A stretch of 64,000 bases of DNA from a virus. Taxonomy: Duplodnaviria; Caudoviricetes. Shown here in pieces: positions 25,757 to 58,989 of this stretch. A program made the position numbers and the translations under genes. The stretch covers positions 128,001 to 192,000 of the IMG/VR virus record IMGVR_UViG_3300026549_000032. One strand, given 5' to 3'. The notes beneath the pieces are model-generated. The model was given only the letters and a program-made list of their open reading frames with translations. It searched no databases and had not been told where the DNA came from. Every line of letters starts with the position of its first letter. Within the stretch, counting starts at the first letter, position 1.

Positions 25757-26477
25757 AGTAAGTGAGGCTTGGTACTTCGGAAACAGAGAATATTTAAGTG
25801 AGGAAGTTGAAAAGAACGCCCTTGACTTCGAAAAACTAATTGACCCTAAGCTCTGGGAAGAAGATGATGAAGCTGACACCAATGTAACTGGTTGGGGCAC
25901 AGTTACTCTGGACTTCTATGTTCCTGATAATGGGCTAGTATCGGCGGAGGTCGGCAAGACAAAAGTTGGTTATTTTACGGACTTCGATCACGGAATTAAT
26001 TATGGGTCAGACGGATTTGATTGGCCTGATCATACAAAAGTAAGCGACGAAATGTTAGAATGGTTTTTGAAAGGAAAGAATAAGAAGATGGAAGAAGAAA
26101 AAGAATTCCTCAAGCAGAGAGCAATTTTCTGTGGTCTACCCAACGTTTGGGTTATGTATAAAGATACTCCATACCTTGTCTTTGGATATGGGGCTGGAAG
26201 ACTAGAACTCTTGACTAGTCCGCTTAGTTCGTGCACATACCCAGAAGCTCCTCTTATCAAAGAAGTTCAAGTTATCCTAAGAAAAGAGGAAGACCTAAAC
26301 GAAGAGGAAAAGAAAGAGTATGCTAAGATTGGTATGACTGACGAGCTTGAGGACTGGATGAATATACATTGTGTGGATCATCGAGACTTAATTTCACGGG
26401 GCTGGGCCGTTGATGCTGTTAGTCTAGGAGACAAGAACCCGTATAAATACGGAGTATGCTTTGGAGGCTTGATATAA
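25749..26477 (+). CDS. Hypothetical protein with a related C-terminal domain
   Basis: DWMNIHCVDHRDLISRGWAV resembles DWLNKHHFDYRGLIEKGLA of 44274. Confidence 0.75.
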   Translation: MSKVSEAWYFGNREYLSEEVEKNALDFEKLIDPKLWEEDDEADTNVTGWGTVTLDFYVPDNGLVSAEVGKTKVGYFTDFDHGINYGSDGFDWPDHTKVSDEMLEWFLKGKNKKMEEEKEFLKQRAIFCGLPNVWVMYKDTPYLVFGYGAGRLELLTSPLSSCTYPEAPLIKEVQVILRKEEDLNEEEKKEYAKIGMTDELEDWMNIHCVDHRDLISRGWAVDAVSLGDKNPYKYGVCFGGLI

Positions 26478-26830
26478 TACATATCGAAGTAAACGATTGG
26501 GATCCGACCGACAAAGAAAAAGAGTTAATAGAATACATAGAAGAGCAGGGCAAAGAGAATGACGGCTATAACTACTGTTGGACTATGTACGACATGGCTC
26601 AATACTACTTAATAACTACAACAAAGAGGTGGTTAATGGAACATGGATTTGAATCCTTGATTTCTCATGCTGCCGATTGGGGTTATCACTTATATTCACT
26701 CAGAATGTATCCCACTAAATTTACGGGAGAATTCTTAGATGGATTTGATAACGAGATTTATGCTGGGAAGGAAGAGATAAATAAGTGCCTCCTGAGAGGG
26801 ATAGAATTAGGATATCGTAAAAAGAAATGA
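26456..26830 (+). CDS. MxW-tag protein (MLWRLD)
   Basis: ORF track plus N-terminal tag. Confidence 0.75.
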   Translation: MLWRLDIIHIEVNDWDPTDKEKELIEYIEEQGKENDGYNYCWTMYDMAQYYLITTTKRWLMEHGFESLISHAADWGYHLYSLRMYPTKFTGEFLDGFDNEIYAGKEEINKCLLRGIELGYRKKK

Positions 26831-26857
26831 TATCCTTTTCTTTTTCTTATAGGTGAT

Positions 26858-27247
26858 ATGATATATAAATTTAGAATAAAACCAGAGTTAATGTGGTGGA
26901 GGTCTGGAAAAGATTATGCAACAGACAATCCACGTGACCTCTGGGAAGTAACTAATTATTTAATCGAAAGATCATTGAAAGAGTTTTTCGAATATAGGCC
27001 AATGACACTTACAGCCAAATATGAGATGGAACGTACTATAGAAGTAGCCATCGAAAAGTGCATACGAGGATATACAGGTAAATGTTCTATTGAACCTGAT
27101 TGGTTTGTACACCTAGTGGGAAGTTGGTATCCTGAAGCACTTTCAAATTATGGTGGGAGTATGGACTTGGTTATCTATAAGCCGGAGGAGTTAAAAGTAA
27201 TCATCAACTCTCTGATGGTGGCGAAGTACATGCAGAAACTCTTATAG
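26858..27247 (+). CDS. Mx[WFY]-tag protein (MIYKFR), possible tail-sheath-like segment
   Basis: LIERSLKEFFEYRPMTLTAKYEMERTIE weakly resembles tail sheath C-terminal helices (recalled). Confidence 0.7.
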   Translation: MIYKFRIKPELMWWRSGKDYATDNPRDLWEVTNYLIERSLKEFFEYRPMTLTAKYEMERTIEVAIEKCIRGYTGKCSIEPDWFVHLVGSWYPEALSNYGGSMDLVIYKPEELKVIINSLMVAKYMQKLL

Positions 27248-27251
27248 GTGT

Positions 27252-28195
27252 ATGGAAGAAAAGAAAATAAAAGACCTAGAAAAAGAACTACGAGAAGTAG
27301 ACGAAAGAAGAAAAGAAATCATTAAAGAAATGGCTGATCTCAGAGCTAAGATTGCTACTAAGAAGTTTAAAGATATGATAGGAGGGTGTTATAAGCATCC
27401 TAACTATTACTGTGGCAGTCCGAGGTCAGAGCATTGGTACATATACTCAAGAATAACTGGTATCTCTGGGATGGATTCTCTAGGGGATCCGATCTACGTG
27501 ACGGAATCTATTCAGAAGACTTGTGATGGAAGGATTGAATATAACCCGAATAATCATGAGACTATGAATAGTAATGACGTGGGTGGTTGGATCAAGATAT
27601 CCTTTGAAGAGTTTATGAAAGCAAGAACAGAAATCTTATGCTTGACTTAAATTATAGGAACACAAACCCTGGGGACCTGGTACAGGGGAAGAAAACAGGA
27701 ACACTCCTCAGAGTCTTGAGGGTTGAGAAGGATGGCCTTTTCGTGGAGGGTTTCAAACAGAAAATTCAATACGAAGACGTAGAACCTTTCTGGATCTATC
27801 CCATTGAGAGGGTTGAAGCCCTAAAAGATATAATCATGGCTGACCCAAGAGAAGACATCGATGGAAAAGGAGATAAGAAGTATGAGTTCTGGTTTGGGGA
27901 TTATAAAGTTTTAACTTTCATGAAGTCGGTAGGTAATAAGGTTAGTGCTTCATGGAGAGAATATCTCCAGACGCCTACCAACCTAGATATTACCACAGAT
28001 CGTTTCAGTGATGTTCAAAGGATGTTCTTTGAGGCAAGTGATGGGTACAGAGAACTACCACTTACCCTTCCAAAACTACCAACCTTAAAGTGGAGGTGTT
28101 TGGGTTGTGGTCGAGTAATGGCTGAGCCTGGACCTCATAGATGTGGTAGTAACTTCCAAAAACATCACTTGACTTGGGAAAATTTGATACTATAG
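27252..28195 (+). CDS. Two hypothetical proteins (27252-27650; 27638-28195 with C-terminal Cys/His cluster)
   Basis: Overlapping ORFs in operon. Confidence 0.7.
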
Positions 28196-28241
28196 GGGAC
28201 GTAAAACACGTCCTTTTTCTTTTCACTCCCTTACCTCTGAA

Positions 28242-28918
28242 ATGAGATTTAATTTAATTTATAAAAGAATTAAAGATACAGATCCAATAGAGATTCCTAG
28301 TCTGGTGAGGGATGATGAAGGAGGAGCATTATCAGGACCAGAAGCTTATAAAGCATTCTGGAAAGCCTATAATGAAACTCAACGCACCATAAACGCGCTG
28401 ATATATCAGTTAGAGATGGTACGTGACTCACTTAACAAGGAATCTAATCAAACAAATAATATATGCTAATCCGGATAACAAATCAGAAACTGATTCGTGA
28501 TGCACTGAATAGATTAGCAGACTTAATGTACGAAACTAATGGACACTACCTCAGGAAGGTTCTTTACGTGGACGATTACTTGTATCTAGGGCGACACGGT
28601 AATAATCTGAAGTACTCTGATAGGTTGGGCATAGTATGTGTAAAAGCATGGCAGAAAAATTGGAGAGAAGGTTACTTCTTAATGAAAGAATTAGCGACCG
28701 TCTTAAATTCTCAAACCCTCGCTCTACCTTTCGAAGAAGTTCAGAAAAGAATCTGGCAGGAAGCTGTTAATAAACCTTCTAATGTAGATTACCTAGAGTA
28801 CTTAGATAATGCTTACATAACTGTTATGAAGTTTAATAGCATTGTGTTCAATTGGTTTTGGGCTAACTTTTTACATCACTGGGACAATGTTGTGGCAGCC
28901 TATAGAAAGAAAACCTGA
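28242..28918 (+). CDS. Two hypothetical proteins (28242-28469 MRFNLI; 28463-28918)
   Basis: Follow the promoter-like motif at 28229. Confidence 0.7.
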
Positions 28919-29393
28919 TGTTGTTATATCTATGGGGAGGTCCTATGTAGAGGATTTCCTCGCCTCAAAAAGAAAGATGAGCGAACAAATTCCCTCCTGG
29001 ACAACAATAGCTAGGTGGAGAGGTCATCCCGGAAGGGGGATAAGAGATTTTGGTTTAAATATAACAGATGCTCCTTTTACGAGAGAACTCTTACATGACT
29101 GGTGGGTACATGGAATCGTATCAAACCAGTGGAGAGGTGTCGATGGTACAAAAGCTTTGGAATTATTACCAAACAAAACTATTCATGACGCACTCCGTGA
29201 ATTTATCTACCCAGAAGTGAGTGGTGATTGGAGTGCTAGAGAGGAAAGAGAGGAGAAAGCTTTTGCGTTAGCAATTGTTAGGATAGACTCTCTATGGACT
29301 AAGTTTTGTGAATATTTTATAATTAGAAGATTAATATATGATAGAGTACAAAGAAGGGAACATTTTCACATCTCTAGCGCAGACTATTACTAA
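28887..29393 (+). CDS. MxW-tag protein (MLWQPI)
   Basis: Internal ATG of ORF 28842..29393. Confidence 0.7.
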   Translation: MLWQPIERKPDVVISMGRSYVEDFLASKRKMSEQIPSWTTIARWRGHPGRGIRDFGLNITDAPFTRELLHDWWVHGIVSNQWRGVDGTKALELLPNKTIHDALREFIYPEVSGDWSAREEREEKAFALAIVRIDSLWTKFCEYFIIRRLIYDRVQRREHFHISSADYY

Positions 29394-29967
29394 TACAGTA
29401 AACCTGATGGGAGTCATGGGAGCTGGCTTGGCGTTAGTCCATAAAGCCATATTTCCAAGGATGTATCAAACCTACAGGGACTACTGTAAGGCTGGTCAAT
29501 TTAAAGCAGGTCAGCTTTGGGTATGGGATCAGTCCTGGAAATGGCAGGTCTTAAACTTCCCGACGAAACGACATTGGCGTGATTGGTCAGAGATCCCTCT
29601 CATCGAAATGGGACTAATGAACTTAGTGAGAACGTATCAGGAGAGAGGAATAACTTCTCTGGCAATACCACTCCTGGGTTGTCAGAATGGTCACCTGAAA
29701 GAGAAGGATGTACTGCCAGTCATGGAGAAGTGGTTAGGACAGATGAATATCCCCGTAGAAATATGGAGACGAAATCCTGATGCCCCAAATCCAATCTGGA
29801 ATGAGCTTAAGTTTAAGTGTTCGGCAGGGAAGACAACTTTCGAGAGAATAGTTCTGGAATGTGAATCTTTCGAGGACTTGGTTAAACGACCAGGTATAGG
29901 AAGAGACTCTTGGGCTAAGGAAACAGGTAAAATACTAGGGATAGAGAAAGATGATATTCAGAATTAA
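29338..29967 (+). CDS. Macro domain protein (DarG/Poa1-like ADP-ribosylhydrolase)
   Basis: GNIF, NTVN..GVMGAGLA, NFPTK.HW and SLAIP.LGC.NG.L motifs. Confidence 0.9.
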   Translation: MIEYKEGNIFTSLAQTITNTVNLMGVMGAGLALVHKAIFPRMYQTYRDYCKAGQFKAGQLWVWDQSWKWQVLNFPTKRHWRDWSEIPLIEMGLMNLVRTYQERGITSLAIPLLGCQNGHLKEKDVLPVMEKWLGQMNIPVEIWRRNPDAPNPIWNELKFKCSAGKTTFERIVLECESFEDLVKRPGIGRDSWAKETGKILGIEKDDIQN

Positions 29968-30097
29968 TAATGATATATCTGACCTTGTCGGTTGGTATAA
30001 CGGAATACCTGTCATCCGAGTAGATCGAAGGGAATTGAAAAGAAAATATCTGACCTTCTTGACGATGCGAGATTTATTCGGAGTTCAGTTTATATGA
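29951..30097 (+). CDS. Microprotein MIFRIN (48 aa) with capsid-like G-x-Y-x-G-x-x-V segment
   Basis: Hand translation MIFRINNDISDLVGWYNGIPVIRVDRRELKRKYLTFLTMRDLFGVQFI, ATGA overlap with the next ORF. Confidence 0.75.
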   Translation: MIFRINNDISDLVGWYNGIPVIRVDRRELKRKYLTFLTMRDLFGVQFI

Positions 30098-30204
30098 AGT
30101 GGAAATTGAAAACGATAATTGCATCTTGGAAAGGGAAACAGCCCGTATTCCATGCAGAAAGATTTCCATTTCGTTTCTGGAATGAAATTTGGTTACCGGG
30201 ATGA
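30094..30204 (+). CDS. MxW microprotein MKWKLK (36 aa)
   Basis: Hand translated, ATGA overlaps at both ends. Confidence 0.75.
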   Translation: MKWKLKTIIASWKGKQPVFHAERFPFRFWNEIWLPG

Positions 30205-30368
30205 TTTGGAAAATAAATCAAACAGAAGAAATTGGGTACTCTATAACCCATGATAGACCTGTCTATAATTTTAGAAGGGAATATGGCCAAACAACTAGTA
30301 GCAATATATCTGATTGGTTTAAAGAATGGTATGGGAAGTTAAAAATACTAGAAGGAAACTTAGAGTAA
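30201..30368 (+). CDS. MxW microprotein MIWKIN (55 aa)
   Basis: Hand translated, ATGA overlap upstream. Confidence 0.75.
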   Translation: MIWKINQTEEIGYSITHDRPVYNFRREYGQTTSSNISDWFKEWYGKLKILEGNLE

Positions 30369-30508
30369 CTGTTAAGATACCTTTTGGCAAAGTATCATCC
30401 AATGGGATAATATATAACAGTGAAGCTCTTCTTGAAGCGATCAAAAGCTGTAATGGCCTAGGAGAGATAACTCATAAAAGTTCTGACGGACTATGGTTTG
30501 GAGTATAA
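30326..30508 (+). CDS. MxW microprotein MVWEVK with prohead-protease (gp21-like) fragment
   Basis: VSSNGIIYNSEALLEAIK...LGEITH resembles gp21-family N.NGRIY...L...LGEL.H. Confidence 0.75.
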   Translation: MVWEVKNTRRKLRVTVKIPFGKVSSNGIIYNSEALLEAIKSCNGLGEITHKSSDGLWFGV

Positions 30509-30726
30509 GCCAAGAGGTATTGTTTAGTGAAACCGTCGATAGATTCATGGGAGAATGGCAGAAAATACTTAGAGCGAGTATGCGTGCCTTCAGTGCTTCC
30601 ATGACAGTTGACTTGAATCCAAAGAATATAAACTATGTCACGAAGACTTCGACAGGAACGTGGATTCCAAGTCAGTATGACATAGATACGACTTTGGGAA
30701 ATAACAATATAGGATATTCGACATGA
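30493..30726 (+). CDS. MxW microprotein MVWSIS (77 aa)
   Basis: ORF track. LFS..VDRF is shared with the next ORF. Confidence 0.8.
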   Translation: MVWSISQEVLFSETVDRFMGEWQKILRASMRAFSASMTVDLNPKNINYVTKTSTGTWIPSQYDIDTTLGNNNIGYST

Positions 30727-30884
30727 CTTGGGAAGTAAATGCGATACTGTTTAGTAGGAAAGTTGATAGATTCTCTACTAAATTTAGAAGCTCTTTCCGA
30801 AAGGCAATGATGCTTTCCTACATGTATGGTGGGGATGGACATGTCGTATTTGATTACGAAACAGCAGGATGGAGTGGAAGTTAG
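30723..30884 (+). CDS. MxW microprotein MTWEVN (53 aa)
   Basis: Hand translated MTWEVNAILFSRKVDRF.., paralog of 30493, ATGA overlap. Confidence 0.8.
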   Translation: MTWEVNAILFSRKVDRFSTKFRSSFRKAMMLSYMYGGDGHVVFDYETAGWSGS

Positions 30885-31123
30885 CGAAACTAGGAATGCC
30901 TAAGCGTTTTTATGATAAGTTAGTCAGAGATGGGAATATAATATTTGCTCCCTACATGCCACTAACTAGTACGCCAACCATAGGCAACTTCAGCAATCCC
31001 GCGCAAACCGTAAATACCAAATATTATTGTGCGGATACTACTATCTGGTCTTCTAAGAAGATACATACTATCCGTCCCTGCACGCTTGACGAGGGAGGAG
31101 ATAGTGACGTTAGTGAAACATGA
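30869..31123 (+). CDS. MxW microprotein MEWKLA with major-capsid C-terminal-like fragment
   Basis: DGNIIFAPYMPLT...TKY resembles gp23-family G.YYAPYV.L...TRY. Confidence 0.8.
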   Translation: MEWKLAKLGMPKRFYDKLVRDGNIIFAPYMPLTSTPTIGNFSNPAQTVNTKYYCADTTIWSSKKIHTIRPCTLDEGGDSDVSET

Positions 31124-31290
31124 CTTGGAACTTTTCAGACACAATGACCATGGCGATAGAACAGAGGGGAAAGATGGGAAGAGGTCCTAAAAGACCTAAC
31201 CTACTCTACTGTTTTAAGACTTGGGTTGAATTGAAAGAGAAAAATGAAACGCTTTTCAAGGCGTGTGAGAAGGAGCTTTTGAGGAAATGA
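31120..31290 (+). CDS. MxW microprotein MTWNFS (56 aa)
   Basis: Hand translated, ATGA overlaps. Confidence 0.75.
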   Translation: MTWNFSDTMTMAIEQRGKMGRGPKRPNLLYCFKTWVELKEKNETLFKACEKELLRK

Positions 31291-31391
31291 TTTGGAGGAT
31301 CAATCCAAGAAAACGGACAAGGACTAGTGGTGTGTTTATCTTGACCAAGGATGGACTTAAGCCTATAAACATTCCGAGGACATGGAAATGA
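31287..31391 (+). CDS. MxW microprotein MIWRIN (34 aa)
   Basis: Hand translated, ATGA overlaps. Confidence 0.75.
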   Translation: MIWRINPRKRTRTSGVFILTKDGLKPINIPRTWK

Positions 31392-31513
31392 AGTGGAATA
31401 TAGACATAGATATTTCAAAAGTCCTCCGCCTACGGAGATTAGAATTGATGATGTTTGAGTATTACATTAATCATGATCTGGGACGTATTAATCGAAGAAA
31501 TAGGACTTGCTAA
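31388..31513 (+). CDS. MxW microprotein MKWNID (41 aa)
   Basis: Hand translated, ATGA overlap. Confidence 0.75.
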   Translation: MKWNIDIDISKVLRLRRLELMMFEYYINHDLGRINRRNRTC

Positions 31514-31598
31514 ACTAACCATCACTACTTCAACTAAAACAACAACTCATACATGTAAGTTGACGTTAATAACCTCCAGCGATGGTGTTAAACGTTGA
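31473..31598 (+). CDS. MxW microprotein MIWDVL (41 aa, Thr-rich)
   Basis: Hand translated. Confidence 0.7.
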   Translation: MIWDVLIEEIGLAKLTITTSTKTTTHTCKLTLITSSDGVKR

Positions 31599-31606
31599 AA
31601 GAAGAT

Positions 31607-31816
31607 ATGAGGTGGGAGTTTAGTGAACTGGTTAATAGATATGTTAGTCCTCCTATCCCAACACTAGATGATATGTCTAACTTAACCTTCTGGGAAAACA
31701 CCAACAGTAATCTCAGAGATGGGATAAAGGCATACAAACAATTATTACACGTTTACAATGCTTTGGGAGTTAAACCTGATTTTGAAACCCATCCTGTGGT
31801 GGGCGAGGGATTCTGA
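31607..31816 (+). CDS. MxW microprotein MRWEFS (69 aa)
   Basis: Internal ATG of ORF 31595..31816. Confidence 0.75.
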   Translation: MRWEFSELVNRYVSPPIPTLDDMSNLTFWENTNSNLRDGIKAYKQLLHVYNALGVKPDFETHPVVGEGF

Positions 31817-32024
31817 GATTTTCATAGTAGACAGAACCACAGATCCGGTCACCCAAGTAATAGAAGATACAGATGCAGCCTGGAATAGCTATCATGAATA
31901 TCAAGCAAAGTACGGGACAAGACTCTTTCCAGAGTACCCAAGCAGGAATGACTGGTATTTTGCAGTAGCTATGACTATGCTTGAGAATGGTGATTATAAA
32001 CTAGAAGTATGCAGTGGGAAATAA
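31758..32024 (+). CDS. MxW protein MLWELN (88 aa)
   Basis: ORF track. Confidence 0.8.
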   Translation: MLWELNLILKPILWWARDSEIFIVDRTTDPVTQVIEDTDAAWNSYHEYQAKYGTRLFPEYPSRNDWYFAVAMTMLENGDYKLEVCSGK

Positions 32025-32392
32025 GAATAAATCCTAAGAAGTCAGCTAAGATACTAAATGATGAGGTGAGACTGATGGATATGATCCTAGAAGCTGAGAA
32101 AACTGGAGTTCGTCCAGACACTCTCTACTTTAAAAATCCTTTCGGCGGAAATAACCTTGATTACTCTCACTTCAAAGACCTACAGTCTTGTAGAGACAGG
32201 TGGGACGATGTTGAAGAACTAATCCTTAGGAAAAATGTAGTCATGCATAGTTACGTCGCAACTGTCGGCAGGAACTATGAAGGCTATGTCAAGTTTCTTA
32301 AGAGATGGAAATGTGATAGGAGTATAATCTCTGAAGAGAACTTTAATAAGTGGTGTGATGAGGTGGAAAATAGATCAAGCGAAGATGTTTAA
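32009..32392 (+). CDS. MxW protein MQWEIR (127 aa)
   Basis: ORF track. Confidence 0.8.
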   Translation: MQWEIRINPKKSAKILNDEVRLMDMILEAEKTGVRPDTLYFKNPFGGNNLDYSHFKDLQSCRDRWDDVEELILRKNVVMHSYVATVGRNYEGYVKFLKRWKCDRSIISEENFNKWCDEVENRSSEDV

Positions 32393-32465
32393 TATGTACT
32401 TTGAATATTTTCGCGATAAGATCTTCAAAGCAGCGAAAATTCCAAAAGAACGTTTTAGTCAATGA
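32358..32465 (+). CDS. MxW microprotein MRWKID (35 aa) with portal (gp20-like) fragment
   Basis: Hand translated MRWKIDQAKMFNMYFEYFRDKIFKAAKIPKERFSQ. Confidence 0.8.
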   Translation: MRWKIDQAKMFNMYFEYFRDKIFKAAKIPKERFSQ

Positions 32466-32575
32466 CTTGGAAGCTCTATGACACCCCAGAAGACAAGGCT
32501 AGGTTTGCTTTGTGGAAGTTCTTGAAGGACGAAGCATTTAAGAAGCTATGGAATGGAAACTCACCGACGACCTAG
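32462..32575 (+). CDS. MxW microprotein MTWKLY (37 aa)
   Basis: Hand translated, ATGA overlap. Confidence 0.75.
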   Translation: MTWKLYDTPEDKARFALWKFLKDEAFKKLWNGNSPTT

Positions 32576-32721
32576 AAGGGAATACTCGTTTGATTCTGAG
32601 AAAGTACACTGGGTTGAAACTTACTGATTCAGTGAAGGCTAAAATGGAAGAAGACATAAAGAAAGCCGTTATCACAGAATGGTTAAAAGGCGGGCTTAGT
32701 TCGTTATGGTCTGGAAAGTAA
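32548..32721 (+). CDS. MxW microprotein MEWKLT (57 aa), possible tail-sheath-like segment
   Basis: Hand translated ..LEGNTRLILRKYTGLKLTDSVKAKMEEDIKKA.. Confidence 0.75.
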   Translation: MEWKLTDDLEGNTRLILRKYTGLKLTDSVKAKMEEDIKKAVITEWLKGGLSSLWSGK

Positions 32722-32816
32722 CTAATGTACTAAGACCACATCAGAAAGAGTTTTTCGGTTGGCTTAAAGGAGAAGTAGAAAAGAAAATGCAGGAATTAAT
32801 AAAGTTGGGTATCTAA
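32706..32816 (+). CDS. MxW microprotein MVWKVT (36 aa) with Q-motif-like LRPHQKE
   Basis: Hand translated. Followed by a terminator-like hairpin and the next promoter-like motif. Confidence 0.75.
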   Translation: MVWKVTNVLRPHQKEFFGWLKGEVEKKMQELIKLGI

Positions 32817-32843
32817 TCCCAATTTTATTTTCCTTATTCGTGT

Positions 32844-33170
32844 ATGATTAAAATATTAATTTCAGAATTACAACAGAGAGAGGACAACTTTGCGAAGATG
32901 CGCGAGTTGACAACAAAAAACGATGAAATCCGCGATCATGTCGCCTTTCTAGTTAGTCAGACCAACTTGAGAGGCTTGATTGTGGGAAAACTTGGTAAGA
33001 CTGCCGACTTTGATCCTGAGGTCGATGAGTTTGAGATTATCGGGTATGAGAAGTCAGAGGATGCTAAACAAGTCAGATTTAAAGTCAGCGTTAAAAAGAA
33101 CGAGATGGACTTAGGTCGAGCAAGAGCAACTATGCTTGATGTTCGTCTGACGGACTGGATTGACTTATGA
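32844..33170 (+). CDS. Hypothetical protein
   Basis: ATG 1 nt after the promoter-like motif at 32832. Confidence 0.8.
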   Translation: MIKILISELQQREDNFAKMRELTTKNDEIRDHVAFLVSQTNLRGLIVGKLGKTADFDPEVDEFEIIGYEKSEDAKQVRFKVSVKKNEMDLGRARATMLDVRLTDWIDL

Positions 33171-35855
33171 TCTTTCGTCTGAACAAAAAAGCGGCGGACT
33201 TATACTACTGGACCATGGGTTATAGGCATAGGAAGGGATTACTTCTCTTACAAGCTAAGCCAGGAGAGCTGTTTAAAGAGTTCTTGGTGGATGACCCAAG
33301 GTATTCTCTGAGAGGAATTGCTAAGAGAGTATTAAGGGTTGGGCCATGATTTGGAAAGACGTAGCTTTTACTTATAACTTCATTAACGAGGAATACTTAG
33401 CTATAGAAGTTATCAGGAACGAAAAAGAAACGGCAGAGGAATTGGGATATAATCCTTGGGGAATGCTAAGTAAAGTTAGCCTGGATGACGGACTTTGGTC
33501 TCAATTTCTTGGAAGATGCTACGAGACAATCGGAAAAGCACCTAGAATCAGGAGAGACTATTTCAACAGGCTCTTAGATACTATAATGCCTGATCCGAAA
33601 CTCATGTTTCATATGCCCATTGTTACTAATCTTTATACTTGTACGGAAGATTTTATCACAAACATGGGCTACTATTCGACCTATGAGAACTACATAACGT
33701 ATTTCACTGGAAAAGGGTGTTGGAAGAAAGCCCTAATGACTGAAGAAGAATTTACGAATCTGTCTAACCTGATTAGTACTACTTATGATACTAGAGAATC
33801 ATAAAATAGACGACTATAGTGATGATAGCATAGTCTGTGGATATTGTCCAGAGAACTTAAGGGAAGAGGAATTAAAGACTTTTGTTCCTCTTTTTACTGT
33901 TATCCAATATGACATAGGACTCCTGCGAGGACAAGAGTGGGAATCTGGAACTGGCTTGGAATGGTTTGTCTGGTATAAGAAACAAGAGAACCATTGGACC
34001 TATCCGGTCTCCACAAAACCAGACCCGTTTTATACATCAATGGACGCCGACGGTAAAATGGTCCGTGGATTTGTTGATGATAGATACTATCGAATTCACA
34101 TTCTCTCTATAAGTGGTGAAGGAGATAGATACTCTTCGTACGGCGGAGTTTCACTAGTCATAGATAGGTGGAATGGAGAACCGCATGTGGTAGGGATTGG
34201 TGAAGATGATGGTTGGTTCTTTCCAGAGACTCTCTATTGGAGGAACTTAGACAAAGAAGGAATCAATAAGTGGGAACTCTGGAGACTGTGTCAAGCTGTA
34301 GGAGATGTTAGGTGGGAAGCTTTCGGTGAGGAAGAAGACTACGGACAGAAAATAAAAGATTGGTTGTATGGTTTGGGGAATAAGTAATGTTTGGATAACC
34401 TATGCCATGTACCAGGGATACAGAACAGTTCCCATGAGAAGTGACCTGGATATCTTTGAAAGGTCTACTAGGGATAGTGGAAAGCTACTTAAGATCTATA
34501 TGGATGAACTAAAGGAACACTTTCCAAAGGCCTTTGAAGAGAACCCTTTGATAGGAACTTATAATAGTCCATATCAAGAGAGTTTTGAACAGTACAACCT
34601 TCGGTACCTAAGGTACATGAGAATATTCTCTTGGAACTCGGACCTGAGGGCAGCACTGTGGGATACTTACAAATACTCTGTCATGATTCCCTACAGGAAG
34701 AACAAACTTCTACGAAAGCTGGCAAAGGAATGCAATAGAACCATGCGAAGAGAACCAGACTTTATCAGGTACATCTTTAGCAGAGAAGACATAACTAAGT
34801 ATAAAGTGGTATAATTAAAAAAAATACAAGTATGTTGTTAATAGTAATGATTATTTTCTGGAGTATTGTATTAGTAGGACTCTTAGGATACACATTAATT
34901 AGTGAGTACAAAGATTGGAGAAGAAAGAAAACTATGGAAGCCAACTTAGAATACCCTCCTAAGACGCCCATCAAACTTTTCGCAGTCAAACATGTCCTTC
35001 ATTGGAAATTAGAGGGAGATGATTTTGACATGGGAAAGGTGAAGGAAGCTAAGAAGGAGTGCATCAGGTGGCTTAATGCGACGATCTATAAGGAACCTGG
35101 ACTGGAGAGTATAGTAGTAGTTTCTCCAGAAGACCTAAACAAATGGAGAGACAAGTTCCGTACCTTAGGCGATATGAAGGCTTGGATAAAGGAACAGGAC
35201 GAAATACTTGCCGAATACATAAAGATCAAAGAAGGAAACTTCGAATAGGTGTGAACTGGCTAGGGGTAAGAGATAAGAGAGTAATTTACGAATATCTTCG
35301 CCTGTACGACGATAAGTTCAACGACGGACTAGACAACATCTACGAACAAAGCGCTCTTGAGATTGCTCAGTGGTTTGAGAAGAGATGGCCAGATAAAGAG
35401 CTAAAGTCGAAAGGAACAGTTGCTCGAAGCTTATTGTATACTTTCGGTTACAATCAAATAGGAGACGTCTTGGCTGAACTAATAATCGACATAGAGGCAT
35501 TGGGCAGAGCTTTTGAAGAAGAGATCGTACCAGAAGCAAGGGGTTGGATATGAATTGGATGAGAGTTAAGAATAAGGACGTAATCACGGTTTACGTTAAT
35601 CTCTTCGAAGAGATCCAACCGAAAAGAGCTGGAAAGATACTTCTCGATTGTTTCCAAGATAATGTAGAGGACTTAGTAGAATGGCTCAAGGTGGAAAGAC
35701 CAGATATAGACATAACTAACCCAATAGGTAACTTAGAGGGAGATAAGAACATAATCGATGCCTTATGGTCGGTGAGGTCAATCTGGGATGCCTTCCTGGA
35801 GAGGATCGTAGAGCCGGTTAATGATGAACTGCCGGGGATGGTGCCAGTAATGTGA
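33167..35855 (+). CDS. Operon of hypothetical genes: 33167 (MIFRLN), 33346 (MIWKDV), 33785, 34368 (MVWGIS), 34832 (TM), 35251 (GTG start, MNWLGV), 35550 (MNWMRV)
   Basis: Overlapping ORFs, five of seven with the Mx[WF] tag. The last two are paralogs (NW..V..K.VI..Y..L). Confidence 0.75.
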
Positions 35856-51300: not shown

Positions 51301-54160
51301 AGATTGCATTAGAGAACTTAGAGGAGATGATTGAGAAGAAATATATCTTAGACAAGAAAACCTTGACCTTTTTCAAGGCCTACATTGAGCCACAACATGA
51401 GTGGAGTAGGATGAGAATCGGTTCTGGGGAATGGGTTAAAGTTTTCAACGACATTAATCCTAAGACTGGTGAAAGAACTGGAAAGGGTTATGAAGAGGAT
51501 TGTATATTTGGATCGGCCAAGGAAGGTAAGAAAGGCCTGATTAAGTATATTGAAGGTCTGGTGAGTAATAATCACAATAAGATAAACCAACTCCGGGCTG
51601 AGAATTTAAAGTATTTGGAATTAATTGCTAAACTGAAAAATGAGTAACGAAGATTACATTAAAGAGTATCCCCACTTGTTTAAAGATGACATAGATAAGT
51701 GGTTATTTACTGAATGTAGTATCATGGGCGGTGCTTGCTCGTCTATTGAGAGCCTACGGTATTCTGTGGCAAGAGGAATTGCCGAGAAACTCTGGCGAGA
51801 CGATGCTCCACGAAAGCCAATCAAAGTATATCGCGTAGAAAATGAGGCTGAAGAGAAAGGTCTCTGGCGTAAGTTTGACGGAACGTGGGAACCACTGTTC
51901 GACATGCTGACGGATGGTAAGTGTAAGGACATGCCAATGGAATTTAGTCCCTTGTATAGCGAGGGCGGGAAGGCATGGTTTGCTAGTGCACCCAGTAAAG
52001 AAACCCTACAGGAATGGTTCAGTAGGAGAGACCTAGTAGAGCTCTTGAACGCTGGATTTACTATCTCCGAGTTCATTGTAACAAACTACAAGAAGGTCAG
52101 TGATTATGAGTATATCTTCACAAGAGATAGTATCTTATGTAGGTCCTACCTTGGCGTCGAGGACATATACCCGACAGACTTTGTTGGAAAATCAATAGAG
52201 TTCTGGACTGGATGTATAGAAGATTGCATGTCTAGGTACATGGAAACGTGGGACCCAGAGATGAAAGAGAAGACTATAGAGAACTTTCGTAAATTCTTAG
52301 AGAAAGATGACGCTGGCTGAGAAAAGAATAATTCAAGGTGAGATTAAGAGACTTAAGGGAAGTGGTTGTGCATCACCTCTGTCAGTCCTAGACGATCTTG
52401 ATGCTTTCGTTGAAAATTTGGCAGAGGAATTTATTGAGCCTGACTTCCAGAAACATGCTGAGATATGGTTGAACTACTTTGTCGAGAGAAACGACAGTGT
52501 TAAGCGGAAGTTAGTCTATGAGACGGCTAAGGAATTTGCTAAGTGGCAAAGAGAGCAGCTGAATAAAGTCTATATATTAGTTGGCTATAAAGCTGCCACT
52601 GAACCATATGGCCCTCAAGACAGTGATATTCTTGGTTATTGCTTTACTGAAGAAAAATGTAAAGAATTGCATGAGAGGCTCACTGATAAGTATATCCCAA
52701 AATACCTGGATCATTCAACCTGTAGTATGATAGGTTGGAAGTTTAAGGGTAAATTCGAAGACTTTCTCAAAAACCGAGATTATATTCTAAAGGACGTTAG
52801 TGATGAAGAGCTTAGGAAAGATTGGGATAAGTGCGGTAGAAGTACAAGTTTCGACCCAATATATGTAATGATAGGTTGGGAAGAGGTTGAACTAATTACT
52901 GATGAACTTCCTAAGTGCCGATATACTGGTGCTGTTTACGTAGAATAAAGAATTATGACAGACTTAGAAAAAGTAATAGCAGAGATTGAGAGACGTAGGG
53001 AGATTAACTTTAACGTCAGCCAACAGTGTAGATTACAAGAAGATGATGAAATTATCAGCTATATCAAGACTCTCATAAAGAGAAGAAAAGAGCCCGCCGA
53101 AGAAGGTGGTGCTAATCCTTCTCTGATCGAGAAAGCAACTAGGTGGTTTGATAATATCGTCGATGAGTGCCAAAAGCTGACGACCGGAAATGTATCTCAC
53201 ATAGGGACACAGATAAAAGGCATGGCTAAGAGGTCTGCCGAGTACTTACGCAGACACAAGGATGATCCTACTAACACAGATTTCAAGAAGGAGTTGAATG
53301 AATGGTGTAGATATACTCATCAGAATGCCATAGTTGCGACGGCTGTTCACTTCGCTAATTGGCAGAAAGAGCAGATAATGAGAGAAGCTGTTGATGGTTA
53401 TGTAAGTAAAGAAGATTCGTCTATTGTCTTTACCGATGCAGAGATGGGAACAGATAAAGTTAAAGTAATGGCTGTATGACTGAAAAAGAAATAATCAGAG
53501 AAGAGGTAAGGAGACGGAGAAAAGAGAATTTTGATCATTCTCAGCAGGCAAAAGCATTGGAGGACGATGATATTCTCTACTTCATTGACAATATGCCCAC
53601 CGAAGAAGAGAAGAAACAGTCACAGTGGTTGAAAGAACTCCAGGATAAACTGGATAATGCCACTGATGAAGAGATAAAAAAGTGGTGGGAGAAGTATTTC
53701 AAAGACAGAGAGGAAAAGAAACCTCTTTGGAAAAGAGTATTTAGCTGGATTAGGAGAGATGCTGTTTAAAAGTCAATACGATATTGGTCAAAGTGTGTGG
53801 GCAGTTCAGCAACAATATGAACCTGTTCGTAACGCCTGCAAGCTTTGTCATGGAAAAGGAATGGTTCAGATAGTTGGCTCAGAAAAACTAGCCGTCTGTC
53901 CAGAATGTAAAGGACATGGTTATTTCGACGGTGGAGCCATTTATCGATGGGTTCTTGGCATACACTCAGTGGTCGGTCAGATTAATATTAAAGCTGTAAA
54001 AACACCTAATAAAGGAATTATTACGACAGTTGAGTACATGCTGAGAGACTCTGGAATTGGAAGCGGGTCTATTTGGAAAGAAGATCAACTCTTCTTGACA
54101 AAAGAGGAGGCCGAAGCCTACTGTGATAGAATGAATGAATTGGAAAGTTCTAGCAAGTGA
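45371..54160 (+). CDS. Run of about 19 hypothetical genes, including 46687-47772, 48193-49104, Cys-rich 49545-49778, paralogs 52307/52955/53476 and CxxCxGxG zinc-finger 53759-54160
   Basis: ORF track, co-oriented and mostly overlapping, in units each preceded by CCTTA-N4-TG. Confidence 0.7.
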
Positions 54161-54545
54161 TTCGGTATCGCTGGCCTTCAGAGAATCCATAAAATTCTAT
54201 AACAGCCTTTGGAAAAAGGGTTTAGGACCGTATCCACCATATGTAGCAGGAGAGTATGTCTGGCAAGACATACGATTGATTCCTGGAACTAATATAATAA
54301 TATTAATTCCTTATGACTACCAAGATGGTACGTACGGAGTGATTGGGGAATTTGATGGCTGGAAATATGTGCAACCAATCTTAATTACATGTATTGCTGA
54401 ATTACATAGATATTTGAATGTGGTTAGTAATGATATCTACAAAGCGTTGGTTCATATACTGAGCGAACATACTGCGATAGTAGCAGATTATTCAATCTTA
54501 ACTACAGATATTCCAGACGCAATACCTATAACGAGCAATTATTGA
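54135..54545 (+). CDS. MxW-tag protein MNWKVL with a weak capsid-like segment
   Basis: YVAG...IGEFDG pattern matches neighbours. Confidence 0.7.
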   Translation: MNWKVLASDSVSLAFRESIKFYNSLWKKGLGPYPPYVAGEYVWQDIRLIPGTNIIILIPYDYQDGTYGVIGEFDGWKYVQPILITCIAELHRYLNVVSNDIYKALVHILSEHTAIVADYSILTTDIPDAIPITSNY

Positions 54546-54549
54546 TAGT

Positions 54550-55170
54550 ATGAAGTGGAAAAAGAAAATAAGATTCGAAAGGTTTGTTATTAACCTAAGA
54601 GAATTAGATGACGGTTGGAAACCTAAGGAGACCCTCGATTCCATGATAATTAAGGCTGAATGTAAGCTGGCAATTAAAACAGTTAAAGGAAATAGTCCAA
54701 ATCTGATTATAGCCGGATCGAGACTCCTAGAAGAGTTTAAGAAGAGTAGCCTATGGGATGACACCCTTAGCATTAACGTACTAGGGCCTATACCAGCTAC
54801 AGATATAGTTAATGAATTTGGAACTGAATGTGAAGGATTCTACAAAGGGATTACTGTTTACTCTTCTGATGATATCCCAGATAACGAAGGGTATCTAATA
54901 GGAAACTGCTCTGGTGTTAATCATGGGCCTGGAATATTGAGGTTAGTTTGGGAAGATGGTACTGAACCAGATAAGAAAGTCTCTATGAAACTAAGCCATC
55001 TTGAACTAACTATGCTCTTGGATTCTCCTAGATTAACCACTAGATTGAGAGAATACTTACTAGAGAAAGACCTCGGTTTCTGGGGAAAGGCTGGATTTTT
55101 CAGAAAGTATAACTGGGATCATTTCTCAACAGAAGAGTTGCTTGAAATCTATCAGGCAATAAAGGAGTAA
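54550..55170 (+). CDS. MxW-tag protein MKWKKK with a major-capsid-like internal domain
   Basis: IIKAECKLAIKTVKGNSPNLIIAG...GFYKGITVY resembles gp23 IDKEAVEIARQTGRGEGNFIIAS...GVLGGKYRVY (recalled). Confidence 0.8.
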   Translation: MKWKKKIRFERFVINLRELDDGWKPKETLDSMIIKAECKLAIKTVKGNSPNLIIAGSRLLEEFKKSSLWDDTLSINVLGPIPATDIVNEFGTECEGFYKGITVYSSDDIPDNEGYLIGNCSGVNHGPGILRLVWEDGTEPDKKVSMKLSHLELTMLLDSPRLTTRLREYLLEKDLGFWGKAGFFRKYNWDHFSTEELLEIYQAIKE

Positions 55171-55221
55171 ATCTCCTTTTTATTTTCACAGCCTTATAAG
55201 AGAAGATAAACATAAGAATAT

Positions 55222-56578
55222 ATGAAAAAGATCGAAAAATTAGAGAACGGTAAATTTATTTTTGATTTTGATAAATATTTTTCGTTGCCAGAGGCCATTA
55301 AGGGTCAACTACACGAAGAAGGTGACCTGAGTGACGAGGCTATCTTGAAACTTGTTACCTACTGCTATGGAACTAAGGAAGATAATCCAAGCTTTACTGA
55401 CAAGCAATGGAAGAAGTATCTAAACCAATGGATAGAGGATGTAAGAAACTACAAACCCGGCGAGAAGTGTGTATGCCAAACAGTGCATGAATATTCTGGC
55501 AGTACTAGGGTTGGTGAAGGTGGAAGATATACTTGTTTGAGTATGAACTCAAGCATTGACAATCAAACTGGAAAACGAAGCTATTACCTAGAAGCTTCTG
55601 GAGATGATCAAGATTTCTTAAGTATTCGATATTGTCCTATCTGTGGAAGAAAATTATGGTAGATAATTTAGTAAACCCTTTCATCGGATATAAACCGCCT
55701 TTCGAGTTTGACGGGCATAGTTATATATTTACAGATGAAGGTTCCATGGCTCTTTGTAGCCAGAACTGGGACGATGTAGAAGATATTCTTGAGAGAGTAG
55801 AAGGCCTCCTGAATAAAAAGAGAGAAGACTATTTTGAAGCTATTGGAACTACTGAGAGCGATCCTTGTGCATTGAAGATAGACAACGTTTGGTTTATCAT
55901 TCGTGGTTGGGGTCACCTGACGGGAACTGGTGCAATGAATCTCCCTCAGAAGGAGGCTTGTGAAATACAAGATGCTTTCAGAGATTGGCTTATCGCTCGG
56001 TTGAAAGGTAAGGAGAGTCCTTATGACATCTACTATCAGGAAGCTAAAGATAGAGTTATTCCAATCCCAGAACCCGAACCAGAACCTGAGATTCCCGAAG
56101 ATGCTAAGTATACAGAGATAATTTTGGAAGAAGGGGAAGAACTTCCTGATCTCTGGTCTACGGCGCAGATTCGAATTAAGAAAGTCCCTAAGGGTTGGAG
56201 AAAGAAACAGGAGAGGAAGAAACGGCTAGAAATGTTAGCCGTTCAACAGCCTTTCTATACTAGATTCTTGAGACTAAGGAGGAAGAAAAGATGACATTGA
56301 TAATTTACATAGTTGTTGCTTTCATCAATGTTGTACTTCACATACTCAGAAGCATACTAGTTATTAAGTCAGGTAAACTCCTGGCTTCTTTTGCGAACTG
56401 TGTCTGCTACACATTCTCGGCCGTTGTTATAAAGTTTATAGCAGAGGTTGATCTCATGACAGCCATTATTGTACAGGCGGCCACTAATTTCTTAGGATGT
56501 TGGGTTGGTATGACCCTCGGTGACTGGATAACAGAGAAATATGGTGTTCAAAGATTTAACAGCAAGAATAACACTTGA
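55222..56578 (+). CDS. Three genes: 55222-55662 (C-terminal CPICG), 55632-56294, and 56291-56578 (small multi-TM, DUF5698-like)
   Basis: ORF track motifs and hydrophobicity. Confidence 0.7.
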
Positions 56579-58989
56579 CCTGAGAAGATCAGAACCAGGG
56601 GCAGAGAGAAAAGTAGATTTCTTGAAACGCTTAGATGAGACTTTTGAGAAGAAAATCATTAACCACCTGAACAGGATGGGGTACAAGCCTTTTTCGATGT
56701 TTGTCAAAGAGAAAGATATGGGGCTTTTCTCATGTAGTCGTAATTTCGACAATGATGGAGGTACTTACTTTGGACTTAAAGTCTTTGCTTCTAACAACAT
56801 GATCAACCCAGAGTATGGAGTTTTCGTGACGGGAAGGAATCAAAAACGACCAACCCCAACAAAGATCATCAGCAGTTTAATACCTTACGACTTGTTGCTA
56901 TGATATTCAAATATCTAACTATACAATACCCACCCTTATTCGCAGATGATATAGACTACGAGATTGAGGAGAAGATATTTAACGTAAATCCCGGCGTCTT
57001 AACATTCTATGTAGGGAAAGAAGTATTGGAAGTTCTTAAAGAATCTCCATACTACATAAGACGAGGTAAGTATTGTTCTGATGGACGAACTGGAACTTAT
57101 GATAAGAGAGCAGTTTTCTTAGTCGATTATCTCCTACCAACGGTTCTTGTAGCAGAAGGTCCGAGGGATGAAATGACGTTTAGAGTCTGTAAGTAAGACT
57201 CTTTTCTTTTTGCCTTACCTATAGAAATTAAAAAATTTTAAGATATGTTTGAAGAAATAAAAGTAAAGAAAGTATTTCAGCTTGCACCAGAAAATGCACG
57301 CGAACCGATTATCACGACTACAGATGAAATAGAAGCTAGGAAAATGGCCGAACAGGCTAACAAAAATATAGCTTACATGAAAAAGATGCGAGAAGGATTG
57401 ATCTCTCGCCCTGACTGGAAGGAGGTTATGGAAGATTTTGAAGAGAATGGGAAACTTCCAGAAGACTTCTATAAATACTTTATGCTTTGTTATTTCAATT
57501 ATGATTTCCTCGCCAAAGAGCATCTGTTCAAGATGGACTATGAAACCAATATAGAATGGATGGAGTATGAGACCAATACTTGGGTAGCCCTAGATAAGCG
57601 TGAAGTAGATGAAGATGAACGACACCACGACTGGGTTTCTTGTGGCTGTAATTGCTATATTCTTAATACAAAAGATTACTATAAATTGTATATAGGAGAT
57701 GAACCGCAGCACAGATCTGTCAAAATACCGAAGGATTATTCTTATGAAGACTTTAAGAAGGAAATGTCTGTAAGGCATACCAACAAAGAGATGGCAGAAA
57801 ATCCAGTCTTAGACAGAATAGAACAAATTCTTACGTTTGAAGAGCATAGGATTATTTTCTGTGAACTAGATTAAGATGATATTTAAGAACATAGATATAG
57901 GAACACGGATAATCAAGATACCACATCTCTATAACTTAGAGCAATCGTTAAATCTTCTTGACTATGAGCTTGGAAGAGCTTGGTTTCTAGATTTTAAAAA
58001 GGGATTTAATAGAATACAAAGTATACTGTGTGGAATTAAAGTATACGACCTATTTGTATTCTATAATGATTTCAAGAAAACCAATCCTGCTTCTGGTTGG
58101 AATACTGGATCTAACCCAATTAGATTAAGTAAGAGGTTAAAACCAGACCACATTTCTATTACTCTTGAAAAACCAAGTACGAATCCAGCATCTGATTGCC
58201 AAGTTGTAGAACTTGAACTTAGAATAATAGAAATATGAAAAAGAAAAGAGATTATACACCCCTAACAAGGGAATATTTCGAGAAAGCAGGCTATGACATT
58301 AAACTCGAGGATAGAGAGCCTTTAATGCCAGGACTTGAACCTTGGAAAGAGTGGGTTGCATACCTGAATAGGAGCCTAGACAATGGTGATGAGGTCTATA
58401 TTAAAGGGTATGTCACCAACTCAATGTACGAAGGAAGATTTGTCTTCACTGGTAACATAGGAAGTGACTTGCATGCTTGTGTTAGACTTTATACAGTCAA
58501 TGACCTAATGAACTTATACGCTTTGGGTCATATAACACCAGATTTTAAACAAGTTCATGATAAACCCTATATAAACAAGGATATTAAAATATGATATTTA
58601 GTTTTTCGGAGCAAAATCTTAAACTTGCCACTCTTCCAACAATAATAACTTTAGATGTAACTGGACCTACTAAAAATTTTTTAGATTATAGATCTAAAAT
58701 TAAATGGTTTGAAGCCTGTATTGATATATTCTTATGGGAAGCTTTAGGACCAGTAATGCCAGGAATGCTTCGAGGTTATGTGTGTTGTAGAGAATTAGCA
58801 AATCTATTCCAAAAAACAAAACTCCTAGGTAGTTTCAAGGATAACTCCGCAGATCCAACAACTGTTGGTCAATATAAAGGTTTTGATGTTTGGTATCTCA
58901 GAAACGTACCGAATGGAGTCGGGTATGTTATGTATACACACGACGATATAACTAAAAAGCCTGGTTATCTTAAATTTGAAATTAAGTAA
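56541..58989 (+). CDS. MxF-tag proteins 56541 (MVFKDL), 56900 (MIFKYL), 57876 (MIFKNI), 58591 (MIFSFS), plus hypotheticals 57245 and 58235
   Basis: Shared M-[IV]-F starts. 58591 and more weakly 56900 share the G.Y..V segment with 54550. Confidence 0.75.

Follow-up and report, generated by a model that had tools for sequence, protein, structure and literature searches.

A run of tagged micro-genes behind a Macro-domain gene

The window, by which we mean the whole stretch of 64,000 nucleotides analyzed here, covers bases 128001-192000 of a 218,381-bp IMG/VR virus record (CheckV completeness, 60%) and has a GC content of 39.7%. It contains a long run of very small open reading frames (ORFs), one of which encodes an 84-residue product that we refer to as q84. 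The features of this locus are as follows.

28194 to 28216, plus strand: terminator-like hairpin upstream of the q84 unit (consensus scan, pattern match only)
29338 to 29967, plus strand: Macro-domain gene at the head of the micro-ORF run (Pfam PF01661, E = 7.5e-9)
30869 to 31123, plus strand: q84, an 84-aa micro-gene with a MEWKL tag, a variable N-terminal part, a capsid-like core and a conserved C-terminal part with an acidic tail
30869 to 30883, plus strand: N-terminal tag M-x-W-[KE]-[ILV], which reads MEWKL in q84
32798 to 32829, plus strand: terminator-like hairpin just past the last micro-ORF of the core array (consensus scan, pattern match only)

Approximately 24 to 26 consecutive and mostly overlapping ORFs at 26456-35855 (+) of the window start with the pattern M-x-[W/F/Y]-polar-hydrophobic. 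Beyond this tag they show no resemblance to one another, two weak pairs (30493/30723 and 32009/35550) excepted, and no protease cut-site consensus follows the tag in these ORFs. The tag is conserved in the arrays of relatives. Upstream of 26 tagged ORFs we found no Shine-Dalgarno-like element; the base at position -3 is a purine in 22 of the 26. The unit with q84 and the Macro-domain gene is bounded by the two terminator-like hairpins, and the Macro-domain neighbor is also present in the relatives L011, L012 and L024 and on the contig carrying P0125. When positions 31287-31600 of the window are set against L011:10419-10617, micro-ORF content differs exactly at ORF boundaries, with the MKWKVYYPTI ORF found in L011 only and the MKWNIDIDISKV and MIWDVLIEEIGL ORFs in this phage only. 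Such boundary-exact differences suggest a cassette-like turnover of micro-ORFs.

No GenBank phage is close to this virus, at the DNA level included, and IMG/VR scans with q84 and with the Macro-domain protein returned no relatives. For a well-conserved 731-aa protein, the best counterparts are those of an uncultured 462-kb phage and of Cellulophaga phages. Another genetic code is not needed, as table 11 leaves reading frames as long as 2653 aa uninterrupted. The 218-kb record starts within a tail-fiber gene and its head module is missing. Capsid, portal and prohead protease were not recognized in it (PF07068, PF05065, PF07230 and PF03420 are all absent), and PHROGs and Pfam searches on approximately 40 of its large ORFs recognized no capsid protein. 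The missing head module explains why q84 had no match among all ORFs of the record. Elsewhere, the record carries a phage-encoded Lon-like ATP-dependent protease of 900 aa (G000:C1:80030-82732 (-); phrog_4871, E = 1e-179) and, near its end, a transposase-like ORF (G000:C1:207751-208959 (+); phrog_10081, E = 1e-21) and a reverse-transcriptase ORF (G000:C1:216549-217892 (-); phrog_1423, E = 7e-53).

Conservation of the q84 gene

The peptide quoted in the preliminary description of this locus is indeed encoded by the plus-strand ORF at 30869-31123, as translation confirms. The gene starts at the first ATG past an in-frame stop, overlaps the upstream ORF by 16 nt and meets the next ORF in an ATGA overlap. 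Its conservation indicates that q84 is a real, independently translated protein of 84 residues, because orthologues with 35-95% identity occupy the same position, comparison with the L011 orthologue gives a dN/dS of 0.32, and M1 is conserved as a start among orthologues (M10 is not). The closer orthologues are 95, 76 and 70% identical to q84; three small and more remote relatives (35-43% identity), which came from a profile search covering 1.84 billion proteins, also start with M-x-W. Every q84 relative closely follows a Macro-domain gene and belongs to a run of M-x-W micro-ORFs, and all seven family members share M1 and W3.

The best-conserved stretch of the family, residues 34-52, falls within the capsid-like core. 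The C-terminal part (residues 53-84) is conserved as well and has no capsid counterpart. Residues A27, Y29 and T50-K51, which form part of the motif singled out in the preliminary description, vary among orthologues. Searches of Pfam (E <= 1), PDB, the ESM Atlas and PHROGs gave no match to q84. The AlphaFold2 model of q84 has a pLDDT of 38, too low for mapping a fold.

Four large repeat proteins (P0126, P0129, P0130 and P0131) were rejected as q84 relatives, their scores being sums of weak repeat matches of 7-15 bits each. P0126 and P0129 are long surface-type proteins with repeats of about 71 residues (..GSWKSLGNTPTAG..YYEDTYI..). Their E value of 1e-11 with the q84 profile arises only from summing over near-identical repeats, none of which exceeds 12 bits by itself.

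Resemblance to T4 gp23

The likeness that first drew attention to q84 was to the C-terminal part of T4 gp23, and the T4 genome (NC_000866) confirms the segment: gp23 residues 445-477 hold DAGIYYAPYVALT...KTRY, and the spacing is 20 residues from APY to TKY in q84 and 21 from APY to TRY in gp23. Residues 21-52 of q84 align with this PF07068 segment with 12 identities. A Smith-Waterman comparison of q84 with T4 gp23 picks the same alignment, with a score of 41 that is reached by 1.5-2% of shuffles (p ~0.015). Because 24 peptides and more than 20 T4 proteins were comparable, one such match is expected by chance. BLASTP of q84 against T4 gave a best E of 4, with an alignment that differs from the earlier one.

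Family-level comparisons gave a similar picture. The PF07068 gathering score is 24.4 bits, which q84 does not reach, and our own Gp23 profile (15 diverse members) scores it at 4.8 bits. With hhalign, the probability of q84 against Gp23 was 12%, with P = 0.0024 over only 13 columns, and none of 400 column shuffles reached the score. These 13 columns match part of the Gp23 C-terminal motif (DAGI[FY][FY][AC]PY[VI]PL ... F.P ... KTRYG..NP[FL]); the TRYG..NPF continuation and the GYKG motif are absent from q84. The close orthologues P0003 and P0004 lose the likeness to T4. An unbiased tblastn search of 50,697 phage genomes returned nothing below E = 4, and its best Gp23 match had E = 8. This match, one of four match groups, is to the same C-terminal segment in the Gp23 of Ralstonia phage RSP15 (16 of 34 identities), and the q84 profile aligns to the homologous C-terminal segment of RSP15 Gp23 at 11 bits.

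The T4 gp23 likeness is thus not significant by itself once the search space is counted. Judging by these alignments and profiles, q84 is not a PF07068 Gp23 member and at most contains a fragment: it has 84 residues, is not a capsid protein, lacks a Pfam match and shows profile likeness over 13-34 columns only. A resemblance by chance, with q84 unrelated to any capsid protein, would fit the T4 match being at chance level after multiple testing, the loss of likeness in P0003 and P0004, and the tblastn result. The comparison with the lineage's own virion proteins, described next, bears directly on this possibility.

A probable major capsid protein of the lineage

Since the phage's own capsid gene falls outside the 218-kb record, our comparison uses the capsid protein of close relatives. 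The route to their virion module led from the record's tail-fiber gene to an 88%-identity homologue on another contig and from there upstream (L030 and L031). The genes of the module encode, in L030 and L031, proteins of 824, 481, 73, 377, 125, 202, 99, 388, 145, 102, 69, 224 and 881 aa. A weak tail-sheath match (phrog_23, E = 1.1e-4) was obtained for the 881-aa gene, which lies downstream of the 481-aa gene. Terminase, prohead protease and portal were not identifiable in the virion-module loci of the relatives. The 102-aa protein of the module (L030:10001-10309) occurs with identical sequence in 235 assembly-collection blocks, on contigs of up to 0.2-1 Mb, and the lineage is therefore abundant and widespread.

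The 481-aa protein is probably the major capsid protein of the lineage, of the gp23 type. By protein-language-model features, its nearest Atlas clusters carry PF07068 Gp23, with scores of 0.97-0.99 and with the family present in 27 of 30 matches; the share of cluster members with PF07068 is 22%, 30% and 87%. The protein carries the same segment as T4 gp23 residues 445-477, and the q84 profile links it with the corresponding homologous stretch in an established Gp23 protein. Its gene (L030:3996-5441) has the strongest expression-type codon bias in the module: CTG makes up 70% of Leu codons and CGY 100% of Arg codons, compared with approximately 10-20% in most neighbors, and GC3 is 0.58. Five relatives, of which three have a completeness of at least 92%, each carry a single copy of it. 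Conservation within the family is 66-99%, as judged from more than 80 contigs of 350-400-kb phages that yielded 31 distinct sequences. The N-terminus of the protein also holds K-M-F-S (residues 35-38).

HMMER, hhalign and AlphaFold2 with Foldseek do not demonstrate a Gp23 or HK97 fold for the 481-aa protein. Searches of PDB and Pfam with phmmer gave nothing, and hhalign scored it as Gp23 with a probability of 0.5-0.8%. The AlphaFold2 model, from a shallow alignment, has a pLDDT of 41; Foldseek with this model found nothing at E <= 1e-3, with the head of phage P1 at rank 1 at a non-significant 8e-3.

Tagged ORFs match different pieces of the 481-aa protein

Significant matches to the profile of this probable capsid protein were found in four ORFs, all of which begin with M-x-W or M-x-F. 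The matching regions, numbered on the 481-aa protein, are as follows.

29951 to 30097, plus strand: 48-aa M-I-F micro-ORF, of which residues 9-26 (29975-30028) correspond to capsid residues 390-407 (profile E = 3.8e-5, rank 2)
30953 to 31036, plus strand: capsid-like core of q84, residues 29-56 (YMPLTSTPTIGNFSNPAQTVNTKYYCAD), corresponding to capsid residues 436-463 of 481
54550 to 55170, plus strand: 206-aa M-K-W ORF, of which residues 28-114 resemble capsid residues 337-413 (hmmsearch E = 5.6e-4, 14.6 bits)
58591 to 58989, plus strand: 132-aa M-I-F ORF, of which residues 21-87 resemble capsid residues 319-386 (hmmsearch E = 1.1e-4, 17.0 bits)

The relationship of q84 to the 481-aa protein is seen in both search directions. 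By blastp, residues 29-53 of q84 match capsid residues 436-460 with 64% identity (E = 3.6e-8). A profile of the q84 family matches the C-terminus of the 481-aa protein at 29.3 bits (E = 1.3e-8) and the same protein in five further genomes at E = 3e-9 to 4e-8. Conversely, we searched a capsid-family profile (alignment A4; eight members, 69-99% identity) against all 1035 ORFs of the genome, and q84 ranked first (26.6 bits, E = 1.3e-7; residues 29-56 against 436-463). An independent search of the phage's own record recovered the q84 core at G000:158953-159036 (E = 1.4e-6) and the 29951 ORF (E = 8.1e-4). The match is local: q84 is a fragment copy with respect to the capsid family and not a full member.

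A second capsid-like piece had been pointed out in the 29951 ORF, and we find it there: this ORF contains LVGWYNGIPVIR, which falls on capsid residues 390-407. By blastp, its residues 9-23 match capsid residues 390-404 with 80% identity over 15 residues (E = 3.6e-7), and its L011 orthologue keeps the capsid match (E = 3e-3). The pieces in q84 and the 29951 ORF map approximately 30 residues apart on one protein. The 54550 and 58591 ORFs belong to a second group of M-x-W/F ORFs at 54135-58989 (+) of the window, where they alone are significant against the capsid profile. The suggestion that separate capsid pieces are carried on separate micro-ORFs therefore holds in an extended form, with two micro-ORFs and two larger tagged ORFs carrying different pieces of the C-terminal third of the probable capsid protein.

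Controls were clean. Among the reversed ORF sequences, the best match to the capsid profile had E = 0.18. Profiles of the neighboring 824-, 73- and 377-aa virion genes found nothing at E <= 1 in the genome's ORFs, and the profile of the 125-aa virion gene gave best matches of only E = 0.15-0.17. When 20 proteins of the L030 module were compared (five through family profiles and the others with single-sequence blastp), significant fragment copies were found for the capsid protein only. A library covering all virion parts was thus not seen among these 20 proteins, of which the capsid protein alone is copied.

The sequence relationship between q84 and capsid protein is, on this evidence, significant and specific to the 481-aa protein. 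Chance is refuted for this protein, since searches in either direction, covering six genomes and backed by clean controls, gave E values of 1e-7 to 1e-8, and we consider it extremely improbable that q84 is unrelated to any capsid protein. The original identification of a major capsid C-terminal segment therefore stands against the probable capsid protein of the relatives (blastp E = 3.6e-8; profile E = 1.3e-7) and falls for T4 itself, where neither the gp23 match nor the Gp23 profile (4.8 bits) is significant.

An old copy held at the protein level

The copy in q84 does not look recent. At 15 identical residues with degenerate codons, q84 and the capsid gene, whose DNA was taken from a relative, use the same codon in four cases, with 5.9 expected from codon usage, and q84 lacks the codon bias of the capsid gene. 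Recent DNA duplication or gene conversion was rejected by this codon test. As synonymous sites are randomized, the copy is old and the likeness is held at the protein level. On the capsid side, the segments concerned are near-invariant in the 31 distinct capsid sequences of the lineage. Orthologues in L011, L012 and L027 retain the capsid likeness. Where the capsid protein of the lineage has G-I-Y, q84 keeps A-P-Y, as in Gp23 proteins.

Distribution is narrow. The capsid segment is also present in five more distant relatives, three with a completeness of at least 92%, in which we found the full capsid gene only and neither a q84 gene nor any fragment ORF at E <= 0.01. The fragments are therefore an innovation of one sub-lineage.

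An old copy with randomized synonymous sites could also be a relic of a partial gene duplication, in which a capsid-derived stretch was recruited as a stable element for a function unrelated to the capsid. The A-P-Y in place of G-I-Y and the conserved C-terminal part (residues 53-84) without capsid counterpart would suit such an origin, and T4 itself keeps small ORFs, annotated as alt.-1 and alt.-2, from a partial duplication of alt. These resemble our ORFs in being small and in deriving from part of a larger gene that the phage itself carries. They differ from the present case, where a large distance separates the pieces from the parent gene, four ORFs are involved, and the pieces share a tag and evolve under purifying selection. 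Against a relic, the capsid-like stretch is the best-conserved part across the whole q84 family, and four ORFs independently retain capsid pieces. We therefore think recruitment for a capsid-unrelated function quite improbable.

Position of the copied segments and possible modes of action

In T4 gp23, K420 lies in the A domain and the A-P linker comprises residues 486-502, and A-domain elements make subunit contacts within the capsomer; in the T4 prohead, an extended 'A loop' touches the adjacent subunit (PMC9546572). From these positions, T4 residues 445-477, and so capsid residues of approximately 430-463, fall in the A domain, at the core of the capsomer. We infer, by position only, that the whole copied region (residues 319-463) corresponds to the A domain.

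The explanation that we favor, and hold to be likely from the sequence relationships above, is that the core of q84 is an old, selection-kept copy of a capsid segment presented behind a shared tag, with competitive mimicry as its most likely mode. In outline, q84 belongs to a sub-lineage of uncultured 350-400-kb phages in which a near-invariant 28-residue segment of the probable capsid protein (residues 436-463) was copied long ago and is kept alike by purifying selection. The core is carried behind the short M-x-W tag that is common to approximately 25 neighboring micro-genes. The free peptide may then engage whatever the capsid segment normally contacts, and candidate partners would be a neighboring capsid subunit, an assembly factor, or a host protein that recognizes the capsid protein.

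These partners lead to different predictions of function. If the partner were the capsid itself, an A-domain-like peptide would bind capsid subunits as a modulator of assembly or as a docking piece; it may slow down or direct the building of capsomers, disrupt assembly in co-infecting relatives, or fix the tagged protein inside the head. The correspondence by position of region 319-463 to the A domain points this way, as do the short N-terminal tags on unrelated small proteins, which recall the capsid-targeting sequence of T4. However, no protease cut site follows the tag, and a dominant-negative peptide would also hit the phage's own assembly, because the capsid segment is invariant across the lineage. 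We regard such a role in assembly or docking as a tentative option, with the odds against it.

The T4 internal proteins IPI-III and Alt, which bear a capsid-targeting sequence, are the closest comparison for the tag: a short N-terminal tag sits on unrelated small proteins in a variable cluster, and here 26 ORFs share the tag with no paralogy beyond it. The differences are that the tag here has approximately five residues without a recognizable cut site, and that the T4 cargo proteins are not fragments of the capsid protein. Capsid-derived dominant-negative factors are familiar from retroviruses, as with Fv1 and enJS56A1, and satellites encode capsid-redirecting proteins such as PICI Ccm. By analogy, the likeness would be one of principle, namely that a capsid-derived protein acts on capsid assembly or recognition. 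Those factors are whole domains or homologues supplied by the host or a satellite, whereas here we see phage-encoded fragments of 18-90 residues.

Alternatively, the tagged micro-proteins may be immune decoys that occupy a host sensor of the major capsid protein without triggering it. There are precedents for short capsid peptides as immune determinants, namely the T4 Gol peptide with Lit, and capsids are sensed by CapRel. Four separate ORFs presenting different pieces of one capsid region, adjoining a Macro-domain gene among small accessory-type genes, would be in keeping with such a role. On the other hand, a free capsid peptide could equally trigger the sensor; five related genomes, of which three are at least 92% complete, have this capsid segment and lack the fragments; and the capsid protein alone is copied among the 20 virion-module proteins compared. 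By analogy with known sensors, a decoy is conceivable, and we rate it as unlikely. The same low standing applies to a broader proposal, in which the tagged micro-proteins would each present a different invariant A-domain piece and antagonize either capsid-sensing immunity or the assembly of co-infecting relatives.

A literature search on capsid-fragment decoys or M-x-W tags returned nothing relevant, and to our knowledge no phage has been described whose tagged micro-proteins derive from parts of its own capsid protein.

Implications

Our results hold a lesson for the reading of divergent phage genomes: a by-eye likeness to T4 gp23 that fails standard tests echoed a strong match to the very divergent capsid protein of the lineage itself. 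Among the unexplained parts of phage genomes, small genes of unassigned function make up the largest. Significant and controlled sequence matches tie four such genes to particular segments of a single abundant virion protein, a likeness that selection maintains, and the 84-residue protein and its 28-residue core are defined reagents for further work. If the broader proposal above, of antagonists that each present a different A-domain piece, is true, it would represent a strategy of protein-fragment mimicry that we have not seen described for phages. The matches offer a concrete hypothesis, that peptides mimicking the capsid protein may be aimed at capsid assembly or at capsid-sensing defense.
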